From positions 62,001 through 126,000 of the forward strand of contig OY253678.1 of assembly GCA_958009085.1 (NCBI GenBank): a DNA stretch of 64,000 nucleotides, given 5' to 3'. Every line of letters starts with the position of its first letter. Position 1 is the stretch's first letter. The notes beneath the pieces are model-generated. The model was not told where the DNA came from. It saw only the letters and a list, made by a program, of their open reading frames with translations, and made no database searches. A program made the position numbers and the translations under genes. Shown here in pieces: positions 8,346 through 53,030 of this stretch. The stretch comes from Protoeuglena noctilucae. Lineage: Eukaryota.

Positions 8346-9528
8346 GACGGCCGCGACGAGCGGATCCACATGCTGGGCGCCCTTTGGACCCTCCCCCGTG
8401 TAGTCCTTGGCCCCTGTGGTTTGCGCCCTGCGCGCGGACGATCATGCGGATATCATAGAAGGCCTCGCGCCGATCGGAGCGGCCGGGAACGCGCGGGCGC
8501 GCAGGTTCCGCACCGTGCCACAGCATCGCGCGGACCCCCGCGGTCGCGCGAGACCTCGCTGCCCGCGGTGCCTGGCGCTCCGCTCTGGTTGGGGGAAACC
8601 GTCCTCTGCAGGGGCGCGAGGAATGGGGCCGCGCATTTTTCGAACCACGCGGCCCAAGCGTGCCTTATGCATTCCATTCATCAAAGGGCATTCGGCCGCG
8701 AGCGCGCGAGGCGCCTCGTCGGCGCGATGGGGGCGCATCGGGAACGCTCCTGTCCGTATCCAAAAGACGAGGCAACTCTCCCCGGCGCCCGGAGGGCCTC
8801 TCGCTCTTTCGCCTCGCTGGTGACGGGCGCACCTGGAACGGGTCCCGACCCGCCGCGCGGAGGGCTGAGAGCAGCTTGGACTTGGTCGCGGTATGATCGA
8901 ACCGGTTCTCCGCCGAGCCACCGCTGCGGGGAAGGGGCCGCGCGCAGAGGTGCCGGGGAGTGTGCGGACACGCTCGCCTCCTACCCCCGCCCACCCCTGG
9001 CCTCGCCCGCTGCCACCGTCCGGTCCCTCGGCGACAGAGCACGGCTGCGTGGCGCACCTGGTCTGAAATTCTTCCCTCGCCACGCGTGACCGCCCCCGGT
9101 CGGGGCGGGGGGGTTCGGAGGCCATGGCTATCTCCGTGCAAGCTCCAGGCCCAGCGTGTTATTATTCACGAAGCAAGTGAGGAGTGCTCCGGCTTGCTGA
9201 AGCACCGCACGAGCCCCTAACTGCCCGGAGTTCGGGCCCCAAGCCTGCCGCAAGGCTGGCTGCGGGTCACGAGCTAGCAAAGAAGAAGCGCTTCAGCCGC
9301 AACATAATGCGTCGCGGAAAGTCGAAGGTTGGGGAAAACTACGTGCGCGCTTGGTGGTCCGCCGGGACGACACACACGAACGCGCATCATTTAGCACATG
9401 ACGTGCGCGTGGAGAGGCAAAGCGGGCGAAAGTCGGCTCTGGCGCAAGGCTCTGGCGTTTCAGCCACCCCCTCCGCCGCTGTTATGCGGCTCCTCAGGCC
9501 CCAAGTGCCCCTAGACATTCTCGTCGAC

Positions 9529-10543
9529 ATGGAGAAAGCGGAGGATACGTCGCAGTCCGACCACCTACTCGGTGGCGCGTCGTCCACTCCCGCAGGCTTG
9601 GCCCGGCCGGGCAGCGATGTAGAGCCCGTTGCTTCCCCCTCCGGCCCAGCCGCCGAGGTCTCTGCAAATCGTCAATCAACCTGGGCGTCCCCGTCTGGTC
9701 AAGGATCGCTCCGGTGAGCGCGGGCGCGGGCCCCAGCACTGTTGCATAACGTCGCCCGTGGCATCAGCTCGCAGCCCCGCCCGCCGGCCGCAGCGCCTGG
9801 GCCGCGCGCACGTTCGCCGCGGGAGCCAACGTCCTCCTCCCCGTCGCCGTCACCTGGGCGATCGTCGCCTTCCTCGATGGCTTGTTCAGCCCCATCATCT
9901 CGCGCCTGTTCGGCGTTCGGGTCTTCGGCCTGGGAATCGCCAGCGCCGTCGCCGTGACCTTCGCGGTGGGGCTCGCCACGTCGTCCATGGTCGGACGGTG
10001 GCTGTGGGGCGTCCTCGACGCATTGCTCGCCGCCGTGCCCCTCGTCAGCACCGTGTACGGGTCCGCCAAGCAGATTGCTGCGGCCGTGTCGCCGCAGGGG
10101 GAGTCCGGCAAGGCCTTCCGGTTAGTGCGGAGGGACGCGTGACCGTCATCGATGTCGTGACAGCAGTGCACAGTTGCGACCATCCCCACGCCAGCGCTGC
10201 CGGCCCCCGCAGGGAGTGCGTGGCCTTCAGCCACCCCCGCGCAGGTCACCTCACGCTGGGCTTCGTGACCGCCGAGCCCGTGGTGGCCGAGGCAGGCGGG
10301 ACACCCTCGCGCTTTGCTGTGGTGTTCGTCCCCACCAACCACGTGTATCTGGGGGACCTCCTGCTGGTGCCTGCATCGGCTGTGCGCCGCACCAACCTCA
10401 CCGTGAGACAGGGGCTGGAGACCGTGCTGTCCTGCGGGGCCGTGGCGCCCGCGAACCTCGTCCTGTCAGCCTGGGCGCCGACGCAGCCCACGACAGAGCC
10501 CACGAGACCAACGCAGCCTGCACCCGCTCCCGAGAGTGTCTGA
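9529..10543 (+). CDS. COV1/LCV-like DUF502 membrane protein
   Basis: FSPIISRLFGVRVFGLG..., VPLVSTVYGSAKQIAAAVSP, HPRAG..GFVT, VFVPTNHVYLGD are characteristic DUF502/COV1 motifs; stop TGA at 10541-10543. Confidence 0.85.
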
Positions 10544-10724
10544 CTGGCCCGTTCCGGCGCGCAATGTTCAATGCCGCGGGCGCAAAAGGAGAGGGTGAAA
10601 GGGGGCTTTACTGTCAGCATAGCAACTGCAACCGCCGCCTGGGTGGCACTGCTGGGCGCTCGAGGCCAGATAGCAAGCAGGGTCATCCGCGCAGCCTTGT
10701 CTACAGGAGGGGATGCGAGCAGGG
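10537..10724 (+). repeat. Direct repeat copy 1 (~190 bp) on the left of the kinase-WD40 segment
   Basis: TGTCTGACTGGCCCGTTCCGGCGCGCAATGTTCAATG...GCTTTACTGTCAGCATAGCAACTGC...GGCGCTCGAGGCCAGA...GATGCGAGC recurs at 17065-17261. Confidence 0.95.
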
Positions 10725-11798
10725 TAGGGTGGGCGCTTAAACTGGAGGAGGTGTGAGCGTCGCGTGGACAGTGTGCTGGTTCTAGCGCGGCAAACGCTGT
10801 GGGGAGTGAGATGTAACCACGTGGGTGCAGTTGTTACCTAGCACTATGAGAATCAAGCGTTAAAGTCGGAGATCACAGCTTTGTGCTCTTGTCAGACACG
10901 GCGCTTGGGGCCAGAAAGCCGCTTTCGACGCCGTGACGCTTGTGAAGTCGAATGCGATCTTCAGCTGCGGCGCATTTATCGTCGAGTGTGCGCTCTTCAA
11001 GCGTAAATCCGACCCAGAAAACCACAGCGCGCGTGGATAGAAGACAAGGCAAGAATTCAAAGCAGCTGGCCGTAGATCGCATGTTATGACACGTCTCTGG
11101 CTGTCTCCGGGGCCAGGGAGAGTGCTAGCGAGGTAGCACCGCCCCAGCATCTGAACAAAGTTGACCCTGGGGTCCGAGCTCGGCGATCGGACATTTCCTG
11201 CTTTGCTTTGGGATCATGTTACTGCCTTTGTTCGCGCTCACACCTGCGAGGTGCCCGTGGGCGCCAGGCAGCCAGACGCGGGCCCTGACCTCCTCGCGCT
11301 TGCCGAAGGCCCTCTGCGCCTGGTCACGCGACCCGTCCTGCTTTTAAGCATGTTTACGAGTGCAGCTTCGAGATAGACGTTGGATGACAGGGCCATTGGC
11401 GCTTGATACCCCTCCCCGGCGGTAGCACGGCGCTGAGCATGCCAAGGTCTGCCGTGCGCGCAGACGGGCCGAAGAGGCGCCCAGGGCTTTCCGAAACGTT
11501 TGCAGCAAAGTCTGCTCATCTGCGCGAGTCTGCAGGATGGGAGGCGGGGCCAGCAAGCGGTCGCGGAGGTGGGCGTGTGATTTGCATTGCGCAGAGGAGC
11601 TGGCAAGCAGCGAACACGACGCGCAATCACCGCGTACTCACTGCGCCTTCTTCTCGCAGCCGACAGCGTCGCTCCGCTCCTGCGACCCCTGCACATGCAC
11701 CACCCGTTGCGGCGAGCCATGGGACCGAGACGCCACGCGGAGGTACGAATCCACGGCCATCTCCTCCCAGAGGCTCCGCCAATCGCAGCGGGGGATGC

Positions 11799-14700
11799 AT
11801 GTCGTCCATCGGAGAGTCTCTCTCGCCTGCAGGGGCGGCTGCATCGCCAACCAGCGTGGAGGCGAAGGCAGCACTGGAGGTGGGCCCTGGCAACGAGACC
11901 TCATCGGAATTCCTGGCGTCTGTGTGGGCCATGCAGGCGCTGGTGGGGAGCGGCGGGGCGCTGGACGGCGTCGTGGACAAGGGCGGGGCCGGGGCGGAGG
12001 ACGTGGCGCGGGCACGGAAGGCCATTGAGCGCGTGCAGCGTGCCCTGCAGGGGGTGCCGGGCCTGAGTATGCTGGGGCCCGTGTGGGAGGTGGCCGGTGT
12101 GGTGTTTGGGCTGTGCGCCCAGGCGCTGGCCAACCGCCAGAACTGCTACCGGCTGGCGCGGTGCGTGCTGGTGGTGGCAACGCGGCTGTCGGCCATGGAT
12201 GGGCACGTGCTGGCGGGGAGCAAGGTGGCGGTGGAGGACCTGACGAAGAGCCTGGAGAGCGCGAGAGAGACGGTGCAGGTGAGAGCCCACGGGCAGAGAC
12301 CGGTGGGGCACAGCTTGACCCCAGGCTTGCAGCTGCCTGTCGGAGGGGAGGACATGCGAGACCCATTGATGCGCCTGCAGCGGTACTGCGACCGTGGCAT
12401 GCTGGCCAAATTGCTTTTCAGCACGGCGCATGCGGAGAGGTTCGTGGTCCTGCACCGCGACCTGGAGGCCAAGTTCCACGTGCTGGCGAGCGACGTGGTG
12501 CTGATGGGCGGCAGCGACTACGCGGAGGACGAGAGGCTGCGGGAGGCGCTGCGGCGCGTGGCGGGGACAGACGACCCCAAGGCCCTCGCGGCCCTGGCGC
12601 ACGACGAGGCCAAGGTGGAGGCGGTGCTGGCGGCGCTGTCGGTGTCGGACCAGGCGGTGGTGGCAGTGGTGAACGCGCACGCGGACCGGCAGTTCCAGCA
12701 GCAGGGGTCGCTGATCCGGCGCATGTTCGAGCAGCAGCGCGACGCCTTCCAGGACATCGCGAGGCAGCTGGCGGAGCACCGGCACAACGGGACGCAGGGG
12801 CCGGTGGGCTTCGACGGCGAGACAGCTCGGCAGGGTTGCGCGGAGTGGTCGCGGGAGGTGGTGGAGGCGGCGACAGGGGGCTTTGAGCCTTCGCGTGTGG
12901 TGGGCAAGGGCGGGTTTGCGGAAGTGTTCGCCGGGGAGGTGCATGGGGGCTCCAAGGGCGCGGCGCTGCCAGTGGCAGTGAAGCGGTTCCTGGACAGAGC
13001 TGACGCAGACGACGTGGCGCGGCAGATGGCGACGGAGGCGGAGCTGCTGTCGGCGCTGCGGCACCGGCACGTGGTGCGGCTGCTGGCCACGTGTGCCGAG
13101 CCGCCCTGTCTTGTCTACGAGCTGTGCCGGGGGGGCACGCTGGAGGAGCGGCTGGAGGGCAAGCATGGAGGCCTGTCCGCTGCCGCGCGGCTGCGGGTGC
13201 TGGCGGAAGTGGCCGAGGCGGCGGCGTTTCTGCACTCGGCGACTGGGCGCGCGGGGGGCGCCAAGCTGCAGGGGGTGGTGCACCGGGATATCAAGCCGGA
13301 CAACATTCTGTTGACGGCGGACGAGGACGATGCGGAGGCGCGGCTGGGGGACTTTGGGACGGCGCGGGAGGAGAGCGAGCAGGCGCGCGTGACGCGGGTG
13401 GTGGGGACGTACGTGTATGTGTGCCCGGTGTACATGCGGACGGGGCTGGTAGGGCCGCAGACGGACGTGTACGCGATGGGGGTGACGATTGCGCAGGTGG
13501 CGGCAGGGTGCCGGGGGGTCGACGTGCTTGCGGCACTGGCACCGGGGGGGGAACGGGAGCTGGCGGCGGACGCTGGAGCGGGGGAGTGGGTGGCTGGAGT
13601 CTTCGAGGAGTGCGTGGGGTTGGCGCGGTGGTGCATGCTGCAGCGTGACGGCGGCGCGGCGCGGCCGGACATGCGGGCGGTGGCGGCATACCTGCGTGCG
13701 CTGTGCGTCGTGGTGACGATGAACCAGGCGGGGCTGCTGGACGCGATGCTGGGGGAGCTGAGGAAGCGGCGCGAGGAGGTGAGGGCGGGTGTGCAAGAGG
13801 GAGCGGCAGTGTGTGCGGGGCAAGGCATGGCGCACGCAGTGAGTGGGACTTGTGCGTGGCTGGACGCGCGGTGATGTCGGTATGCATGGCCTCTGGACGC
13901 AGGCGTTGTGGGCGGCTGTGAATGCGGGCCAAGACATGTGCGAGTGCAGCGTGTGCGGCAAGAAGAGAAGCACGTACGAGGTGGTGGTGTGCTCGGAGGG
14001 CCAGCACCGCATCTGCGGGTCGTGCCTGGGGCCGCGGGCGCTGGTGCTGGCGGCGCGGAAGGCGGCCTTCACGGAGGCGGGACACCTCCGATGCCGGGAG
14101 TGCACGGGGCGTGCGTGCGAGGGGGTGCTGGCATACGTGGACGTGGCGGCGAGGCTGATGGAGGACGGAAGGAAAGCGGAGGCGGCGCAGTTCATGGATG
14201 CGAGCCGGGGGCTGACGGACGCGGTGCAGGGGCGGGACCGGGGCGGGGTCGGCGAGGGAGGTGAAACGGGGGAGGGGAGAGTGCCGGGGCCACAGGGTGC
14301 GAGAGAAACCAGTCATGCAGAGCGGGTGGTGGAGGTGAGGGGGAGCGGTGCATGCATGCATGCGGGCGCGACAGAAGTGTTGCGCATGCTCGGGCATTGT
14401 TGTTTCGAGGTAGCGGCAGCGCGCATGTGGTGTAAGGGTGGTGAGCATGTGGGTGTAATGGTGCGGGTGCTCGCAATCAGCCATTGATGCGTGCTCAAGT
14501 GGACGTGCTGAAAAGAGGTAGGATTGCGTGGTGGCTGCAGGGCGGGCAGGATGAAGATCTCAAAGCTGCAGTGGAATTCATCCAACGACAGAGCGTCCGG
14601 GAGGTATTAAACGCGGCCACTGGAGGACTCGTGCGCACAGTGTCCAAAGACTCAGACAACGATAGAGCCTCTCTTAAATCCTTACCATCTTGCACGGTGA

Positions 14701-16505
14701 AGTCGGTGGCCTTCTCCCCCGACGGGCGGTGGGGGGCGAGCGGGTGGGATGACAAGACGGTCAAGCTGTGGGACGCGGCGACGGGGGAGCTGGTGCACAC
14801 GCTGTCTGGGCACTCACACTTGGTGAAGTCGGTGGCCTTCTCCCCCGACGGGCGGTGGGTGGCGAGCGGGTCGTATGACGAGACGGTCAAGCTGTGGGAC
14901 GCGGCGACGGGGGAGCTGGTGCACACGCTGTCTGGGCACTCACACTTGGTGAAGTCGGTGGCCTTCTCCCCCGACGGGCGGTGGGTGGCGAGCGGGTCGT
15001 ATGACGAGACGGTCAAGCTGTGGGACGCGGCGACGGGGGAGCTGGTGCGCACGCTGTCTGGGCACTCACACTGGGTGAAGTCGGTGGCCTTCTCCCCCGA
15101 CGGGAGGTGGGTGGCGAGCGGGTCGTATGACAAGACGGTCAAGCTGTGGGACGCGGCGACGGGGGAGCTGGTGCGCACGCTGTCTGGGCACTCGTATGGG
15201 GTGAACTCGGTGGCCTTCTCCCCCGACGGGAGGTGGGTGGCGACTGTGGCGACCGGGTTGTATGACAAGACGGTCAAGCTGTGGGACGCGGCGACGGGGG
15301 AGCTGGTGCGCACGCTGTCTGGGCACTCACACTGGGTGAAGTCGGTGGCATTCTCCCCCGACGGGAGGTGGGTGGCGAGCGGGTCGGATGACAAGACGGT
15401 CAAGCTGTGGGACGCTGCGACGGGGGCAGAGGTGCGCACGCTGTCTGGGCACTCGTATGGGGTGAAGTCGGTGGCCTTCTCCCCCGACGGGAGGTGGGTG
15501 GCGAGCGGGTCGGATGACGAGACGGTCAAGCTGTGGGACGCGGCGACGGGGGAGCTGGTGCGCACGCTGTCTGGGCACTCGTATGGGGTGAACTCGGTGG
15601 CCTTCTCCCCCGACGGGAGGTGGGTGGCGACCGGGTCGGATGACGAGACGGTCAAGCTGTGGGACGCGGCGACGGGGGAGCTGGTGCGCACGCTGTCTGG
15701 GCACTCGTATGGGGTGAAGTCGGTGGCCTTCTCCCCCGACGGGCGGTGGGTGGCGAGCGGGTCGGATGACGAGACGGTCAAGCTGTGGGACGCGGCGACG
15801 GGGGCAGAGGTGCGCACGCTGTCTGGGCACTCGTATGGGGTGTACTCGGTGGCCTTCTCCCCCGACGGGCGGTGGGTGGCGAGCGGGTCGGATGACGAGA
15901 CGGTCAAGCTGTGGGACGCGGCGACGGGGGCAGAGGTGCGCACGCTGTCTGGGCACTCGTATGGGGTGAACTCGGTGGCCTTCTCCCCCGACGGGAGGTG
16001 GGTGGCGACCGGGTCGGATGACGAGACGGTCAAGCTGTGGGACGCGGCGACGGGGGCAGAGGTGCGCACGCTGTCTGGGCACTCGTATGGGGTGAACTCG
16101 GTGGCCTTCTCCCCCGACGGGCGGTGGGTGGCGAGCGGGTCGTATGACAAGACGGTCAAGCTGTGGGACGCGGCGACGGGGGAGCTGGTGCGCACGCTGT
16201 CTGGGCACTCACACTGGGTGAAGTCGGTGGCATTCTCCCCCGACGGGAGGTGGGTGGCGAGCGGGTCGGATGCCAAGACGGTCAAGCTGTGGGACGCGGC
16301 GACGGGGGCAGAGGTGCGCACGCTGTCTGGGCACTCGTATGGGGTGAACTCGGTGGCCTTCTCCCCCGACGGGCGGTGGGTGGCGTGCGGGTCGGATGAC
16401 AAGATGGTCAAGCTGTGGGACGCGGCGACGGGGGAGCTGGTGCGCACGCTGTCTGGGCACTCACACTTGGTGAACTCGGGGGCCTTCTCCCCCGACGGGC
16501 AGTAG
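11799..16505 (+). CDS. Predicted MLKL-like 4HB + Pelle/RLK-type Ser/Thr kinase + RING + 14x WD40 protein (4 exons)
   Basis: ATG 11799. Introns 12279-12380 and 13779-13902 are phase 0, GT-AG. The third intron is either 14335-14540 (phase 0) or 14261-14499/14571 (phase 1); all keep frame. Kinase motifs GKGGFAEV, VAVK, HRDIKPDN, DFG, TDVYAMG. RING C-x2-C..C-x4-H-x2-C-x2-C..C-x2-C. The WD40 ORF ends at TAG 16503-16505. Fusion into one mRNA is inferred. Confidence 0.75.
14697..16502 (+). repeat. Coding tandem array: 14 near-identical 126-nt WD40 units plus a partial 15th
   Basis: Unit V[K/N/Y]SVAFSPDGRWVA[S/T/C]GS[Y/D]D[K/E]TVKLWDAATG[EL/AE]VRTLSGHS[H/Y][L/W/G]; unit 5 carries a 9-nt insertion (TVA). 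Confidence 0.98.
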
Positions 16506-17064
16506 TTGGCGAGGCAATAAGTATGTTGTTTTCTTTGCGATGGCGTCTGTGAGGCCGATGTTTGTTTTAGCTACAATGCACCCCCCCGCATCCCCACCTG
16601 CCACGACCCTAAGGGCACCAGCTGCAGGCACCGCCACCGCGACAGCACCATTTAGCTGCCCTCACCACTGGGCTCCTCAGCCCAACTGGAATCGCAGCCG
16701 TGTCTAGGCATGGTGGGCCGACCCCTCACGCGTACTGGTCGACCCTGGCCGTCAGCATGCGGCCCTAGCACTCCATGCCACTGAATTGCACAATATACGT
16801 TTGGGAGTAAAGGTGCAGGGGCAACGAGGGACACATTAGTGGCGCCGTGCTGGACCTAACCTCCAGGCCTACAGAGGCCAGCCGCACGTGCTTGTGGCAT
16901 TTTGCCCGGGTCGATGCGCCGTGGCGTGTGATCGCCTGCCTCAAAGGGCAACAGCCTGTAGAGGCTGTTGTGCGGTCTATTACCACACCCAAGGGCGTGG
17001 CGGTTCGTGGCTAGGGGGCAGGTTTTGTGTCTCGGTAGGCTCGCGTTGATCGCCGGGTTGACAC

Positions 17065-17261
17065 TGTCTGACTGGCCCGTTCCGGCGCGCAATGTTCAAT
17101 GTCGCGGGCGCAAAGGGAGAGGGTGAAAGGGGCTTTACTGTCAGCATAGCAACTGCGACCGCCGCATGGGTGCGTTGGGTTGCATGGCGCTCGAGGCCAG
17201 ACAGCATGCAGGGTCAGCCGCGCAGCCCTTGTCTTCTACCAGCGGCGATGCGAGCGCAGGG
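17065..17261 (+). repeat. Direct repeat copy 2 (~195 bp) on the right of the kinase-WD40 segment
   Basis: Matches 10537-10724 with a few substitutions and indels; ends ~12 nt from the rubredoxin stop codon. Confidence 0.95.
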
Positions 17262-17273
17262 CGCGTCGGTCTC

Positions 17274-18061
17274 TCACTGCATGGCGATGAAGTAAGCCCC
17301 CGCGGAGGCCACCGCCAGCGCCCCCACCACCAGCAGCGGCGTCACGTCCGCGTCCGCCTCCGCCTTGGTCCGGAACTTGCTCTTGGGCGCCGCGCACTCG
17401 GGGCACCGGTAGTTCTGCGGATAATGAGCACATTCGGTGAGCTATGTGCAACAAGTAACCGCTGCGCAGGGGGCTGCCATGCGATGTCAGGCACGCACCT
17501 CGGGGAGCGACGCAAAGGCCTTCCCACGGTTGGCGGACGGGTCGTAGACGTAGCCGCAATCACGGCAGACGTAGACCTCGGGGCCAGGCTTGTTGCTCGC
17601 CGCCTTGCCCTTGGCCGGGGCCGCCTTGCCGGTCGTCTTCGTCGTCGTCGCGGGCGGCGCCTCCTTCTTCTTCAGCAGGTTAAAGGCGCCCGCGGTCACG
17701 ACGCGCGATGGCGCTGCGGGACGGCCGATGGTCTGCGCAGCCGACGAGCTGGCGAGGAGCGCGGTGCGGGACCTGCGCGGGTAGCGGCGATCGGATACTG
17801 GTGAAATCGTGGTGGGGAAACGCCCGCCCATTGCGAGGTCTCGGGCGCACCGCGTCCTGGTTTCTGTGCATCTTTGCATATAAACGACAAAAATAAACGC
17901 GCAAGCGCGCCTGCAGGCGCGGGGGAGCCTCGTCGACGCCGCAGGCCGCGCCCGGCCTGCAGCAGCGTCCCTGGGCCGCCGAGCGCTCGGCCGGACGCTC
18001 CGGCAACGCAGTGATAGCGAGCTGTGCTTCTTGTGCGGCGCACTCACTGCAGGGACGCCAT
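17274..18061 (-). CDS. Plastid-targeted rubredoxin-like protein with C-terminal TM anchor
   Basis: Spliced model MASLQSRTALLASSSAAQ (transit-peptide-like)...YVCRDCGYVYD...LPE|NYRCPECAAPKSKF...LLVVGALAVASAGAYFIAMQ*; two CxxC motifs. Confidence 0.88.
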
Positions 18062-18253: not shown

Positions 18254-21200
18254 CTAGAGCTCCGCTCTCTCCCCGCGCGTCTCCTGGAATGCCGCCGAGA
18301 GGATCATCAGCCGACTGCGCACGTAGGGGAAGGCGTCCGCCACGGCGGGGAGCGTGCCCAGGTCGATGCCCCGCACCTCCTGCAGCGCAGTGGGGAATCG
18401 CGAGGTCCGCTCGGCGCGCCAGGCCCTCCACGCGCCTCTGCTGGCCTGTCTCATTAACTCCTCACCTCCTCCACCGCGCTGCGCTCGCCGCCGTCCCGCA
18501 GCGGGGCCGGGAACAGCCACGCCTCCCCCGTGGCGCGTATGAAACTCCTCGCGTCCTGCGCCAGGATCGCCTCCCAGTCCGTCTGCTCGTCCTCCGGGAT
18601 CGGACTGACCACGGGCATCCCCGCGGCCAGGAACAGCGCCAGGATGGTCGTGTATCCCACCGCAGCTGTCCCTCGCGCCAGGGGCATGAAGTTGTACCAG
18701 AAATAAGCGAACAGCAGAATGGACTCAGCCACCTCCTGCATGAGGTCGCTGCGGGGGAGCGGAGACGGGTGCAGGAGGGGTGCAGAGGGTAGGGAACGGT
18801 GGGGGCGCGATGGGCCTGTCAGTCACCACCACCCCCATCGCATTATGTCACCTACACCCAGATTGCCTTCTCTGCATGTCACTACAACATGTCACCTCCC
18901 CATAAATGTAACTACCACATACCACGTCCCCCACACATCAACACAACATATCACCTCCCCTGTGCATGTCACCTTGGCGCCCCCTCGAGCATGCCCCCCT
19001 TTCCCCTGTACCCTTCCAGCGCCACCATCCCCTCCACCACCCTCCCCCAGCACCAGGACAACTCCTCGTCAAAGTCGCGCCAGCGGGGGGGCGTCACGGG
19101 GGTGCGGATGCTGAACTCGAATCCATCGGGAACGTTGGGGACACTGGGGGGGAAGAGAGGGGTCACGAGAGATGAAAGAGTGGGAGTGGGTAGGGGTAGG
19201 TGCGGATGGGGGGAGTGAGAGGTGAGGGCGTGTGAGCATGGAGATGAGAGCACCTAACCCACACCCCCATGCATCCATGCATTGCCCACCCATGCCGTGC
19301 CCATCCATGCACCACCCATCCAATGCATCACCCATCCATCCATGCATCACCCCTCACCGCACGACTGTCAGCCGCGTCCCCTCCATGTTATGCCCCTCCC
19401 GGCTGGCGCTCCGCACGCGCACCACATTCCAGCAGTCCTGCCCCGCCACGCGCCACACGTCCCCGCACGTAGCAGCCCCTCTCACGGCCGACAGCTGAGA
19501 CTCGCTCAGGGGGATAGCGGCGTCCTGGCCGTTCGTGCCCCTGCGTGCGACGACGCAGTGCTGTCAATGCATCGTCACGCAGTGCAGTCGATGGCAGTTC
19601 GTTACCCATAGAAAGAGAGAAGGGACAGGGGGAGTTAGATGAAACTCGGAGTCATGGGAGCGCTACTCCTCTTCCGCAGCCCCACACCCCTCACACTCAA
19701 ACCCCAAACACATCCCATCACCCACCCACTCCCACTCCCCCTCCCCCTCCCCCTCACACCTGTCTTCCTCCACATCCACACACCACAACACACACCTCAT
19801 CACATATATCACCTGTCTTCCTCCACAATGACCTTCTTCAGCAGACCCAGCGCCCTCTCCGCCCAGTGGTAATAACGCACACACTTGGTCTGCCCGGTGT
19901 ACATGGGAGTGTGGGACCCGAAACCTCTCTCGAACTCTTCTCTCGGTAGCAAGTCCACCCAAACCACTTGGTCATTTGGCTCCGCAATCTGTCGCCAACG
20001 AACGATGACGTCCATCGCATCGCGCCAACCGAACGCGTGCGTGCCCTTGGGGAGAGATGAGGCCGTGGTTGCGTTTGCAGTGTTGCCTGCACTTGCACCG
20101 CCACCCGCACTGCCACCCCCGCTGCCACCCCCACTGCCACCCCCACCGCCACCCCCACTGCCACCCCCGCTGCCAGCCCCACCACCCCCCGCCGTCGCCG
20201 TTGCGTCCGACACCGCCGTCTTTTTTCCAGCGATGCGATCGGCCACCAAGGCCCGCACCGTCTGCGCCAACTCAATCGCCGCCAGCCCCGCCATCCGCAG
20301 CTGACGGGCGTTGGGGAGGAAACCCTGGTGGCGGTACTGCAGGGGTGGGGGAGATGGGAGGGGTGGGGGTGGGAGGGTGCGACAGGTGCACGCTCAGGAT
20401 GTCAGCTGATGTTGTCATGGCACACCGCCCATGCCCGGTCAGACCGTGACATCTAAAACATCATGAACTCCCATTATCGCCAATTACCTGGATGAGTGAC
20501 CCCAGGGCATCGGCGGCCTTCACCAGCGCCCTCCCCGCATTCGCGTCCACCGCCGCCGCGTCCAGTCCGGGCACAATGCCCTCCCCGGGCTCTGGCAGTT
20601 TCATGTCCTTCAGGGACTTGCGGCTTCTAGCACGCTGGGCGCCAGTCTGGGGGGGCAGCGGGGGGCGGGGTGGGAAAGGGGGGCCAGAAAGCGCCACAGC
20701 GAGTTTTCATGCACCCAACCAATCAAGCGGCAATGGATTTTTATGCAGTTTTATCCTCCCGATGTGGCCATGGCATACCAACTGCAGGTCGCATGTGCAA
20801 GCCACCCACAACTGCTGCTCCGTGCATAGTACTATCATAGTACTATCATCACATGCCCCCCGCATACCCCTCACCTCGGTGATGAGGGCGGGCGACGGCG
20901 GGAACTTCATGCACCAGTTGTGTTTGAGCCTCGGGTGCAGGTCCCTGTCGAAGCAGAAGTCCCAGGGGCGGCAGTCCAGGCGGCTGCAGAGGTACACGGC
21001 GAGCTCCTCCTGGTAGTAGGCCACGAACCTGAATGTATGGGAAGTGGAAAGAGTGTTACAAGTAGCTAACCAATTACTCCTGGTAATAGGCGACGAACCT
21101 GGGTGGATGATGTGAGGATAAGGAATGAATGTGGTAGAAGAGAGTAACGGCATGAACACAACAGACAGTACCAGCAACCTCTCCCACATTGCGTACACCG

Positions 21201-51987: not shown

Positions 51988-52032
51988 GGATAGGGGTGGG
52001 TGGGAGTGGGGGTGGTGTTGAGGGTGGGAGAG

Positions 52033-52423
52033 AGGGTGGCAGTGGGGGTGGCAGTGGGGGTGGCAGTGGGGGTGGCAGGGAGGGTGGCAGTGAGGGTGGC
52101 AGTGAGGGTGGCAGTGGGGGTGGCAGGGAGGGTGGCAGGGAGGGTGGCAGTGAGGGTGGCAGTGAGGGTGGCAGTGGGGGTGGCAGTGGGTGTGGCAGTG
52201 GGGGTGGCAGTGAGGGTGGCAGTGAGGGTGGCAGTGGGGGTGGCAGTGGGTGTGGCAGTGGGGGTGGCAGTGAGGGTGGCAGTGAGGGTGGCAGTGGGGG
52301 TGGCAGGGAGGGTGGCAGGGAGGGTGGCAGTGAGGGTGGCAGTGAGGGTGGCAGTGGGGGTGGCAGGGAGGGTGGCAGTGAGGGTGGCAGTGGGGGTGGC
52401 AGGGAGGGTGGCAGTGGGGGTGG
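52033..52423. repeat. 12-bp minisatellite GGGTGGCAG(T/G)G(A/G), about 32 units
   Basis: Directly visible tandem array. Shorter copies of the motif occur at ~3350, ~20100, ~29230, ~31850-31970, ~40970, ~54040. Confidence 0.95.
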
Positions 52424-53030
52424 GGGTGATGGTGGCAGAGTGGGGGTGGAGCTGGCGAGAGCGCTGCGTGCCAATACAGCATGTACGGGCCACAGCAGGG
52501 GTCTTTTGTTGATGCCTTGCTCGGCTGGCCATAGCAGATTGAACGAAGCCCCATGTCACCACCCATCCTGTTCTCATCATTGCGCCTCGGCTGTTGTTGT
52601 GTCGGTATCACTGTTACAGAAGGATACCATCCCTCCTGTCCCCATCTCGCGTCTGGATGGCTTTGAAAAGGCGACGCTACGCTAGTGAACCATCAGCCAG
52701 CAGCCCGAAGCTCCCCCACGCCCCAAGCAGCGTACGACACCGCGACACTGGCGCCCGTTCCGACGCGGGGCATACCCACACTACGCCCCATGCCCCGCTT
52801 TCTCAACAGGGTGATCTGGCCTCGCTAGCTCCCCATCCCAGGCCTTGGAAAAGCGAAAGCCCCGCCTCCCCGCCACCCCATGGACTGATGTGAAACGCAC
52901 CCTTGGCCATGCACATGCGACGATCTCGCAGACTCCGCAACGCAGTTGGGATGAAGTGGCAAGGCAGCCATGCCACCCGATTCGTCCATTTTCAAATTCT
53001 CTTTTTTGAATTTCCCCCCTTGCCAGGCCC

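Follow-up and report, generated by a model that had tools for sequence, protein, structure and literature searches.

A predicted MLKL-like, kinase and RING-finger protein of the green alga Protoeuglena noctilucae with a mosaic array of fourteen near-identical WD40 units: a candidate non-self receptor

The window analyzed here is a stretch of 64,000 nucleotides from the green alga Protoeuglena noctilucae (GenBank assembly GCA_958009085.1, contig OY253678.1, positions 62,001 to 126,000, forward strand), whose genome spans 26.3 Mb (27 contigs) and includes genes for chlorophyll a/b LHCII proteins. Within it, a six-exon gene model predicts a protein of 1451 residues that starts with MGGGASK and carries, in order, a helical domain resembling MLKL_N, a helical linker, a protein kinase, a RING1-like Cys/His finger and an array of WD40 repeats, the latter in the last exon (Table 1). 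An earlier note, made from the sequence, had described the array; that the array forms the C-terminal part of the predicted MLKL-like/kinase/RING protein is the more unusual feature of the locus, and had been missed. The window's array is designated C11 below, while C2, C14, C15, C22 and C23 are other contigs of the same genome.

The array is real and mosaic, and comprises 14 full, near-identical units. Tandem Repeats Finder, run on the window, reported a period of 126 with 14.4 copies (14696-16513), and translation gave 13 units of 126 nt and one, unit 5, of 135 nt, the extra length being a 9-nt duplication and the sole indel of the array. Mean pairwise DNA identity is 93.2% (87.3-98.4), in agreement with the earlier description, all 14 units are distinct, and the 23 variable sites include every silent and amino-acid variant that had been listed. 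The proposed origin of the stop in a decayed 15th unit was also confirmed, in that TAG stands where all other units read TGG. Silent variants had been called few, which is true of their number (6 distinct silent changes vs 18 nonsynonymous) but not of their frequency per site (pS, the proportion of silent differences, 0.077; pN, that of nonsynonymous differences, 0.065; ratio 1.04 on distinct changes). A two-codon EL/AE block (5 of 14 units) and an H/R variant (2 of 14) lie outside the top-face loops, and four variants, V>G, D>A and T>M among them, are singletons. The H-S/T-D-W tetrad is intact in 11 of the 13 units scored; singletons and broken tetrads collect in the end units.

Variants are combined among the units as mosaics. 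Units 6 and 13, whose kinship had been noticed previously, differ by 2 nt and both lie inside an exact repeat of 131 nt (15260/16142); another, of 122 nt, ties the unit 7/8 region to the unit 10/11 region, and altogether distant parts of the array are connected by exact repeats of 110-168 nt. The four-gamete test was failed by 49 of the 120 informative site pairs. These repeat links and the four-gamete test support concerted evolution with mosaic exchange, as originally proposed. The N+T combination is indeed common to units 8 and 11, yet unit 5 also has it. Adjacent units are slightly more similar to each other (Mantel rho 0.28, p=0.02). Directed mutagenesis, either adenine-specific or resembling repeat-induced point mutation (RIP), was ruled out: the variants mix A/G, G/C, T/G, C/T and A/T.

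The WD40 frame might instead be a separate gene or a decaying copy behind a kinase gene, or the number and order of its units might partly be products of assembly. Illumina-only assemblies are reported to misbuild such arrays (PMC12222747), WD-only and fragmentary copies occur at C14, C15 and C23:15k, and the connection between body and array depends on an inferred last intron, with no joint seen in RNA. This explanation is nevertheless considered quite improbable. The frame remains open over 1.8 kb, without stop or frameshift and with the single 9-nt indel; no two units are identical, and the longest exact repeat is 168 nt. Moreover, in paralogues the fingers and beta-helix repeats share one continuous open reading frame (ORF), and body and array of the window gene lie inside one pair of flanking repeats.

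The positions of the variable residues were compared with those of the HNWD proteins of the fungus Podospora, in which selection was described at codons 7, 9, 25 and 27, flanking the conserved codons 8 and 26 and situated in the d-a loop and b-c turn at the propeller top (PMC1805685). For this register, codons 8 and 26 were assigned to the conserved V and D of the array, which are 18 apart; position tests score 13 units, unit 1 lacking the GH part. Of the 42 positions, 8 vary recurrently, and these include all four HNWD codons (p=0.0006; p=0.009 once 16 positions classed as structural by the analyst were left out), and loops 14-18 and 33-37, on the opposite side, were invariant in all 13 units. 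The variable residues are thus not randomly placed, and the earlier claim of a concentration at a few HNWD-like top-face sites holds for these four codons, though the EL/AE and H/R variants, off the top face, had been passed over.

Selection was measured by a counting method (pN/pS with bootstrap, and tests on distinct changes), not by a likelihood site model, and the counts of changes are small. At the four HNWD codons of the window array, pN/pS was 3.2 (bootstrap 1.6-11; p=0.045 on distinct changes), compared with 0.65 elsewhere; the corresponding ratios were 8.4 in the C2 array (p=0.004) and 2.6 in the C23 array (p=0.001). The excess of amino-acid change at these codons is significant in three of the five arrays. 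In the window array alone, the signal of diversifying selection is modest. When 39 units from four arrays were compared, variability was highest at positions 6, 9, 27, 25 and 7 (the top five of 33). Between the C11 and C2 arrays, all four shared polymorphisms fell at codons 6, 7, 9 and 27, while all three fixed differences were silent (p=0.029 for this contrast); together with the mixed tree of units (see below), the shared polymorphisms would fit either exchange between loci or retained ancestral variants.

A diversifying surface had been proposed in the earlier note, and the excess at these codons speaks for it, whereas the whole-unit ratio does not. The same data can be read as drift after a single blade had recently been amplified, the top face being merely tolerant of change and the protein a signalling kinase of the ordinary sort whose propeller is young. 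Propellers are described as arising continuously from single blades (PMC6805158), and this course of events would suit the whole-unit ratio, the few changes with a p of 0.045 only and the gathering of singletons and broken tetrads in the end units. It is nonetheless judged unlikely: the equally exposed loops of the opposite side are invariant, in the C2 and C23 arrays change at the same codons is likewise above the silent rate, and variants at these codons are common to several loci at which the silent sites are fixed.

The best PDB match of the array is 2YMU, in which 14 near-identical repeats form two seven-bladed propellers (PMC8458387, PMC6805158). By analogy with this structure, the array may fold as the two seven-blade propellers envisaged previously; exposure and burial of the variable residues were judged from the register with HNWD and 2YMU.

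The gene body is closest to the C22 paralogue (83-91%; helical domain 89%, kinase 91%, finger 84%). Alignment of the two revealed four introns with diverged interiors between conserved GT/AG ends; for two of these, at least one of the copies has an intron that disrupts the reading frame. Intron 3, in frame in the window gene, corresponds to a frame-breaking intron of 103 nt in C22 and to a stretch missing from the C2:1290k protein. The ratios of nonsynonymous to synonymous rates (dN/dS) versus C22, namely 0.19 and 0.07 for the helical domain, 0.33 for the linker, 0.18 for the kinase and 0.62 for the finger, indicate that the body is under purifying selection.

The MGGGASK start (G2/S6) has what we take to be a myristoylation-type pattern, and paralogues start with MGGRAS or, at C12, MGCVGS. 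The helical domain has a paralogue, at C2:1290k, that scores 32 bits with MLKL_N, above the cut-off of 27; moreover, the second ESM Atlas hit of the window's domain (score 0.93) is a cluster in which 10% of members carry MLKL_N. A model of a paralogous N-terminal domain is all-helical at low confidence (predicted local distance difference test, 62), and fold searches with it returned generic bundles, with no MLKL chain among the matches listed; a profile of the domain gave no PDB match under E 0.15. The kinase appears, from its top PDB and database matches, to be of the receptor-like kinase (RLK)/Pelle type, and specifically a receptor-like cytoplasmic kinase (RLCK): its best PDB matches are RIPK, BIK1, FERONIA and PBL2 (E 1e-29 to 1e-23), its catalytic motifs VAVK, HRD..N and DFG are intact, and its identity to plant kinases is 31-36%. 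The finger has the Cys/His pattern but matches zf-RING_5 weakly (E 0.099). Pfam scans of the ORFs of the locus detected kinase, weak RING, WD40 and weak MLKL_N only, with no HET and no NACHT or NB-ARC domain, and a genome-wide NPHP3_N scan gave no match at this locus.

RNA and metagenome evidence was surveyed in contigs of 4 of the 22 listed runs, over window positions 11300-14860. In two marine metatranscriptome runs, short contigs matched stretches of the exons without a difference, and another, of 265 nt, extended over two WD units; bins without coverage carry no weight as evidence. In the two other runs, one of them a marine metagenome, the longest listed contigs were identical to the unique part and may not be independent of the assembly; an exception, with 24 differences, fits a paralogue. 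The locus occurs in marine metagenome runs. Summed depth over unit 1 was about 20-30 times that of the flank, which is in line with many units but is not a copy number. Since contigs drop rare variants, missing unit-1 letters are not readable as strain variation.

Relatives of its parts were observed elsewhere in the genome. The WD40 repeat matches arrays at at least six other places, and the N-terminal domain has four other matches. The finger occurs at 12 loci, including the window, with a kinase just upstream in 11; their C-terminal repeats are of beta-helix (6), WD40 (3) or EGF (1) type, while two have no assigned type. Other members combine kinase, fingers, EGF and WD40 (C2:83k), kinase, EGF and WD40 (C8), or helical domain, kinase and beta-helix (C12:69k). 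The family thus appears to be lineage-specific and modular, with kinase-RING bodies joined to WD40, beta-helix or EGF repeats. In contrast to the body, the window's repeats are closest to those of C2 (93%), and a tree of 51 units separates C22 and C15 from C11, C2, C14 and C23 (support 96/98). Because the body is nearest to C22 and the repeats are nearest to C2, the history of the sensor differs from that of the body: the sensor has been swapped.

Most finger loci carry a second finger, and only the first is kept in the window gene and C22, the former lacking an Rcat-like finger as well as the IBR and catalytic RING2 of RBR ligases. The two-finger paralogues, and only these, resemble clusters of RBR/RNF216 type (IBR/Rcat; Atlas 0.86-0.89, leads only), and PF26191, presumably RNF216-RING, is precomputed for paralogue P0008. 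The array could be pictured as a diversifying receptor for the substrates of a kinase/ubiquitin-ligase module by which foreign or selfish proteins are tagged and destroyed, in the manner of a restriction factor, with the helical N-terminus as a scaffold instead of an executioner. Most members of the family lack the MLKL-like domain and keep the kinase and two RBR-like fingers, and in an unrelated record (P0009) a ZNFX1-like helicase ends in the same two-finger module. Such a function is unlikely for the window gene, which has lost the second, presumably catalytic finger; no part of it is less constrained than RING1 (dN/dS 0.62), and its helical domain is strongly conserved (0.07-0.19).

Several further features of the family were recorded. 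Seven loci (L047, L048, L050, L051, L054, L055 and L040) are kinase-(RING-RING)-beta-helix genes; their beta-helix repeats seem to be repetitive internally and to vary at some positions. Other public assemblies contain an allelic variant of the C12 paralogue kinase that differs in one residue (P0003 vs L040/P0024). EGF arrays of the calcium-binding kind, which are usually extracellular, are placed here between kinase and WD40 repeats (L031, 2997-4136; L056, 2914-5235; L049, 1570-3966; all on the minus strand), and the EGF run of L049 is broken by a retroelement-like RNase H (RVT_3) ORF. The WD-only cassettes at C14 and C15 have 5' DNA in common with the kinase genes. In short or fragmentary copies (L034, C23:13000-22999, minus strand; L032; L037), the gene's promoter and first exon lead into an EE(K/R)RAA coil with some two WD units, after which come fragments of the kinase.

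The whole gene, body and array, is enclosed by a pair of direct repeats of about 190 bp, a sequence that constitutes the spacer between two converging neighbor genes. Direct repeats of 26-307 bp bracket 5 of the 18 family loci examined, several of which have short flanks, including L032 (5700-5990/8470-8763, 307 bp), L055 (1444-1634/7507-7690, 195 bp) and shorter pairs at C2 (43 bp) and C1 (26 bp); none of 16 control stretches contained a direct repeat of at least 100 bp. Since introns are kept and the bracketing repeats are long, these observations point to spread of the gene by DNA-level copying with a long target duplication. A horizontal or viral origin is unsupported in view of the introns, the host-like GC content and the paralogues on many contigs. 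Of the neighbors, the gene at 9500-10543 (plus strand) is membrane-protein-like, and that at 17274-17760 (minus strand) is rubredoxin-like (Pfam E 0.0067) with a transit-peptide-like start. Farther away, a 12-bp tandem repeat (51998-52438, 36.8 copies, 89% matches) was noted, whose motif recurs at 20096, 31844 and 40964.

Table 1. Predicted features of the WD40 gene and its flanks (window positions).
Feature	Position	Strand	Basis
Left direct repeat copy (~190 bp), from end of upstream plus-strand ORF	10537..10720	+	87% identical to 17065-17255
Exon 1, start MGGGASK	11537..11568	+	C22 and C23:15k paralogues conserve start codon (ATG), exon and GT donor
Exon 2, low-complexity linker	11660..11742	+	Compatible phases; C22 paralogue conserves the splice ends
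Exon 3, MLKL_N-like helical domain, part 1	11833..12278	+	Pfam MLKL_N weak; paralogue match; dN/dS 0.19 vs C22
Intron 3 (102 nt; keeps the frame, no stop)	12279..12380	+	GT..CAG ends conserved in C22
Exon 4, end of helical domain, helical linker, kinase (~12840-13700)	12381..13778	+	Pfam Pkinase 1.4e-32
Exon 5, RING1-like Cys/His finger (13930-14190) and linker	13903..14334	+	zf-RING_5 E 0.099; 3' donor inferred only
Start of last exon, linker and degenerate WD fragment	14541..14696	+	Acceptor context shared with C23:283k paralogue (81% identity, 31 nt)
WD40 array, 14 units	14697..16469	+	Repeat finding, translation, Pfam WD40 in 14 stretches
Truncated 15th unit, stop TAG at 16503-16505	16470..16514	+	Translation
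Right direct repeat copy, adjoining 3' end of minus-strand rubredoxin-like gene	17065..17255	+	87% identical to left copy

The predicted protein is best explained, with a probability of roughly 0.6, as a membrane-anchored non-self receptor that lacks a NOD and has the array as its sensor end. Among the findings in its favor, the C2:1290k paralogue of the helical domain, the one that passes the MLKL_N cut-off, heads a NACHT-type gene: the domain, which also matches RPW8 (E 3e-4), is followed there by a NACHT-type region (NPHP3_N, 42 bits) and a weak WD40 match. Three further NACHT-type/WD40 loci are present in the genome, and high internal repeat conservation is reported to be enriched in proteins resembling NOD-like receptors (NLRs) (PMC13449251, PMC4986451). 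The MLKL_N-like/NACHT-type/WD40 genes, themselves NLR-like, were catalogued as L042 (C2:1282500-1292499, minus strand), L057, L058 and L059; the genome holds 22 NPHP3_N matches in all, and the model also matches in control genomes.

In the mechanism envisaged, the N-terminal glycine would anchor the protein to the membrane and the two seven-blade propellers would form a clamp. Autoinhibition would be relieved once the array has bound a foreign protein, be it of viral, bacterial or protist origin, the kinase standing in for the nucleotide switch of an NLR, upon which the helical MLKL-like domain would oligomerize, leading to a signal or to cell killing; the lone RING1 would recruit an E2 or may be a remnant. 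Unequal exchange would reshuffle the repeats and renew specificities, while a few predicted top-face residues would be kept diverse.

A number of findings weigh against a non-self receptor with such a sensor. At the level of the array, the HNWD codons of C14 and C15 gave ratios of 1.4 (p=0.20 on distinct changes, two gapped units dropped) and 1.3 (p=0.16, first unit dropped), the whole-unit ratio of nonsynonymous to synonymous change is about 1, the highest per-site ratio (6.5) belongs to codon 39, off the top face, and a GC content of 0.91 at third codon positions may lower silent change. As for the gene, the fifth and last intron has no orthologous support and was placed from the acceptor context shared with C23, no splice joint was found among the contigs of the two RNA runs, and two RNA contigs cross predicted introns (11572-11746; 12354-12504), so that splicing into one protein is what we infer from the gene model. 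The window's helical domain scores 14.7-18.7 bits with Pfam MLKL_N, below the cut-off, and is preceded by a glycine-rich, presumably flexible extension and a putative lipid anchor, unlike MLKL.

A broader and more speculative proposal, for which the odds are somewhat below even, concerns the family as a whole. The alga would possess NOD-free receptors in which kinase-RING bodies, some with an NLR-derived MLKL-like executioner, carry swappable, shuffling WD40, beta-helix or EGF sensors and move to new sites as DNA cassettes with their introns retained, duplicating a target of 26-307 bp; sensor, switch and killer would be united in one protein. Recognition of viruses and other parasites by microalgae is largely open, and the locus offers a concrete candidate.

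The architecture combines known kinds of parts, and within the limited searches made it appears to have no match outside the genome's own family. Among four matches in a representative search with the N-terminal domain, three were the family's own paralogues; beyond the family, no relative joining a kinase to WD40 or MLKL came out of homologue searches, which were confined to longer proteins and scored 8000 candidates each. Metagenome scans yielded no exact match and only kinases at 21-34%, a viral scan yielded two loci at 42-45%, and exact look-ups of eight versions of the WD40 ORF found none. No account of this architecture in algae was found in literature whose coverage was thin for subscription papers and did not extend to supplements (the protein lists of PMC13449251 and PMC5587647).

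Bacterial counterparts of single features are known. The Nostoc WRAP protein (2YMU) likewise has 14 near-identical blades with recurrent change at one position, and the Thermomonospora kinase PkwA is a kinase-WD40 fusion, but the window gene is eukaryotic, intron-containing and has a Pelle-type kinase. In a 2017 survey, none of the 305 highly repetitive WD40 proteins is reported to come from animals or plants (PMC5587647). High internal repeat conservation is known outside fungi, mostly with ATPases (PMC13449251, PMC4986451), and NACHT-WD40 proteins are reported in Chlamydomonas (PMC4773052). The ROCO-LRR and NB-ARC-TPR receptors of brown algae are similarly algal and lineage-specific, with repeats shuffled between paralogues (PMC13449251); there, however, each exon holds one repeat, while the window array is a single exon and is not accompanied by a GTPase or NB-ARC domain.

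Plant RLCKs (RIPK, BIK1, PBL2) share the kinase and the myristoylation-like start but are 31-36% identical to the window kinase, which is predicted to be fused to effector, RING and sensor domains. Comparable in layout are wheat Pm13, R3AK and the MLKLs of Arabidopsis and animals, in which an MLKL_N-like domain and a helical linker precede a kinase fold, although no close sequence relationship to them was found; the predicted first half of the window protein is akin to Pm13 and R3AK and not to the pseudokinase MLKLs. Pm13 also has intact catalytic residues (PMC10951266), and R3AK kills through its four-helix bundle (10.64898/2026.08.07.743466); AtMLKL, in contrast, is a pseudokinase (10.1101/681015). 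The window protein adds to this layout a repeat sensor of its own, a RING-like finger and a lipid-anchor-like N-terminal extension. Should the receptor interpretation be correct, a kinase would be able to replace the NLR switch, in parallel to the wheat MLKL-kinase resistance proteins but with the sensor built in.

The closest likeness on the sensor side is to the HNWD/NWD NLRs of Podospora (het-d, het-e, het-r), which have near-identical 126-nt WD40 units, a predicted double propeller, concerted evolution within loci, and variation at codons 7, 9, 25 and 27; in Podospora the concerted evolution also extends between loci (PMC1805685, PMC12222747). The window gene differs in lacking HET and NACHT domains, in having a kinase and a RING-like finger, in variants without a RIP-like or single mutational signature, and in belonging to a green alga instead of a fungus. 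It thus resembles HNWD in its sensor but is neither an HNWD gene nor an NLR. The HNWD pattern of diversification, at the same codons, is encountered here in the green lineage, on an MLKL-like/kinase body instead of a NACHT body; if the proposed role is borne out, fungi and algae would have converged on one hypervariable surface.

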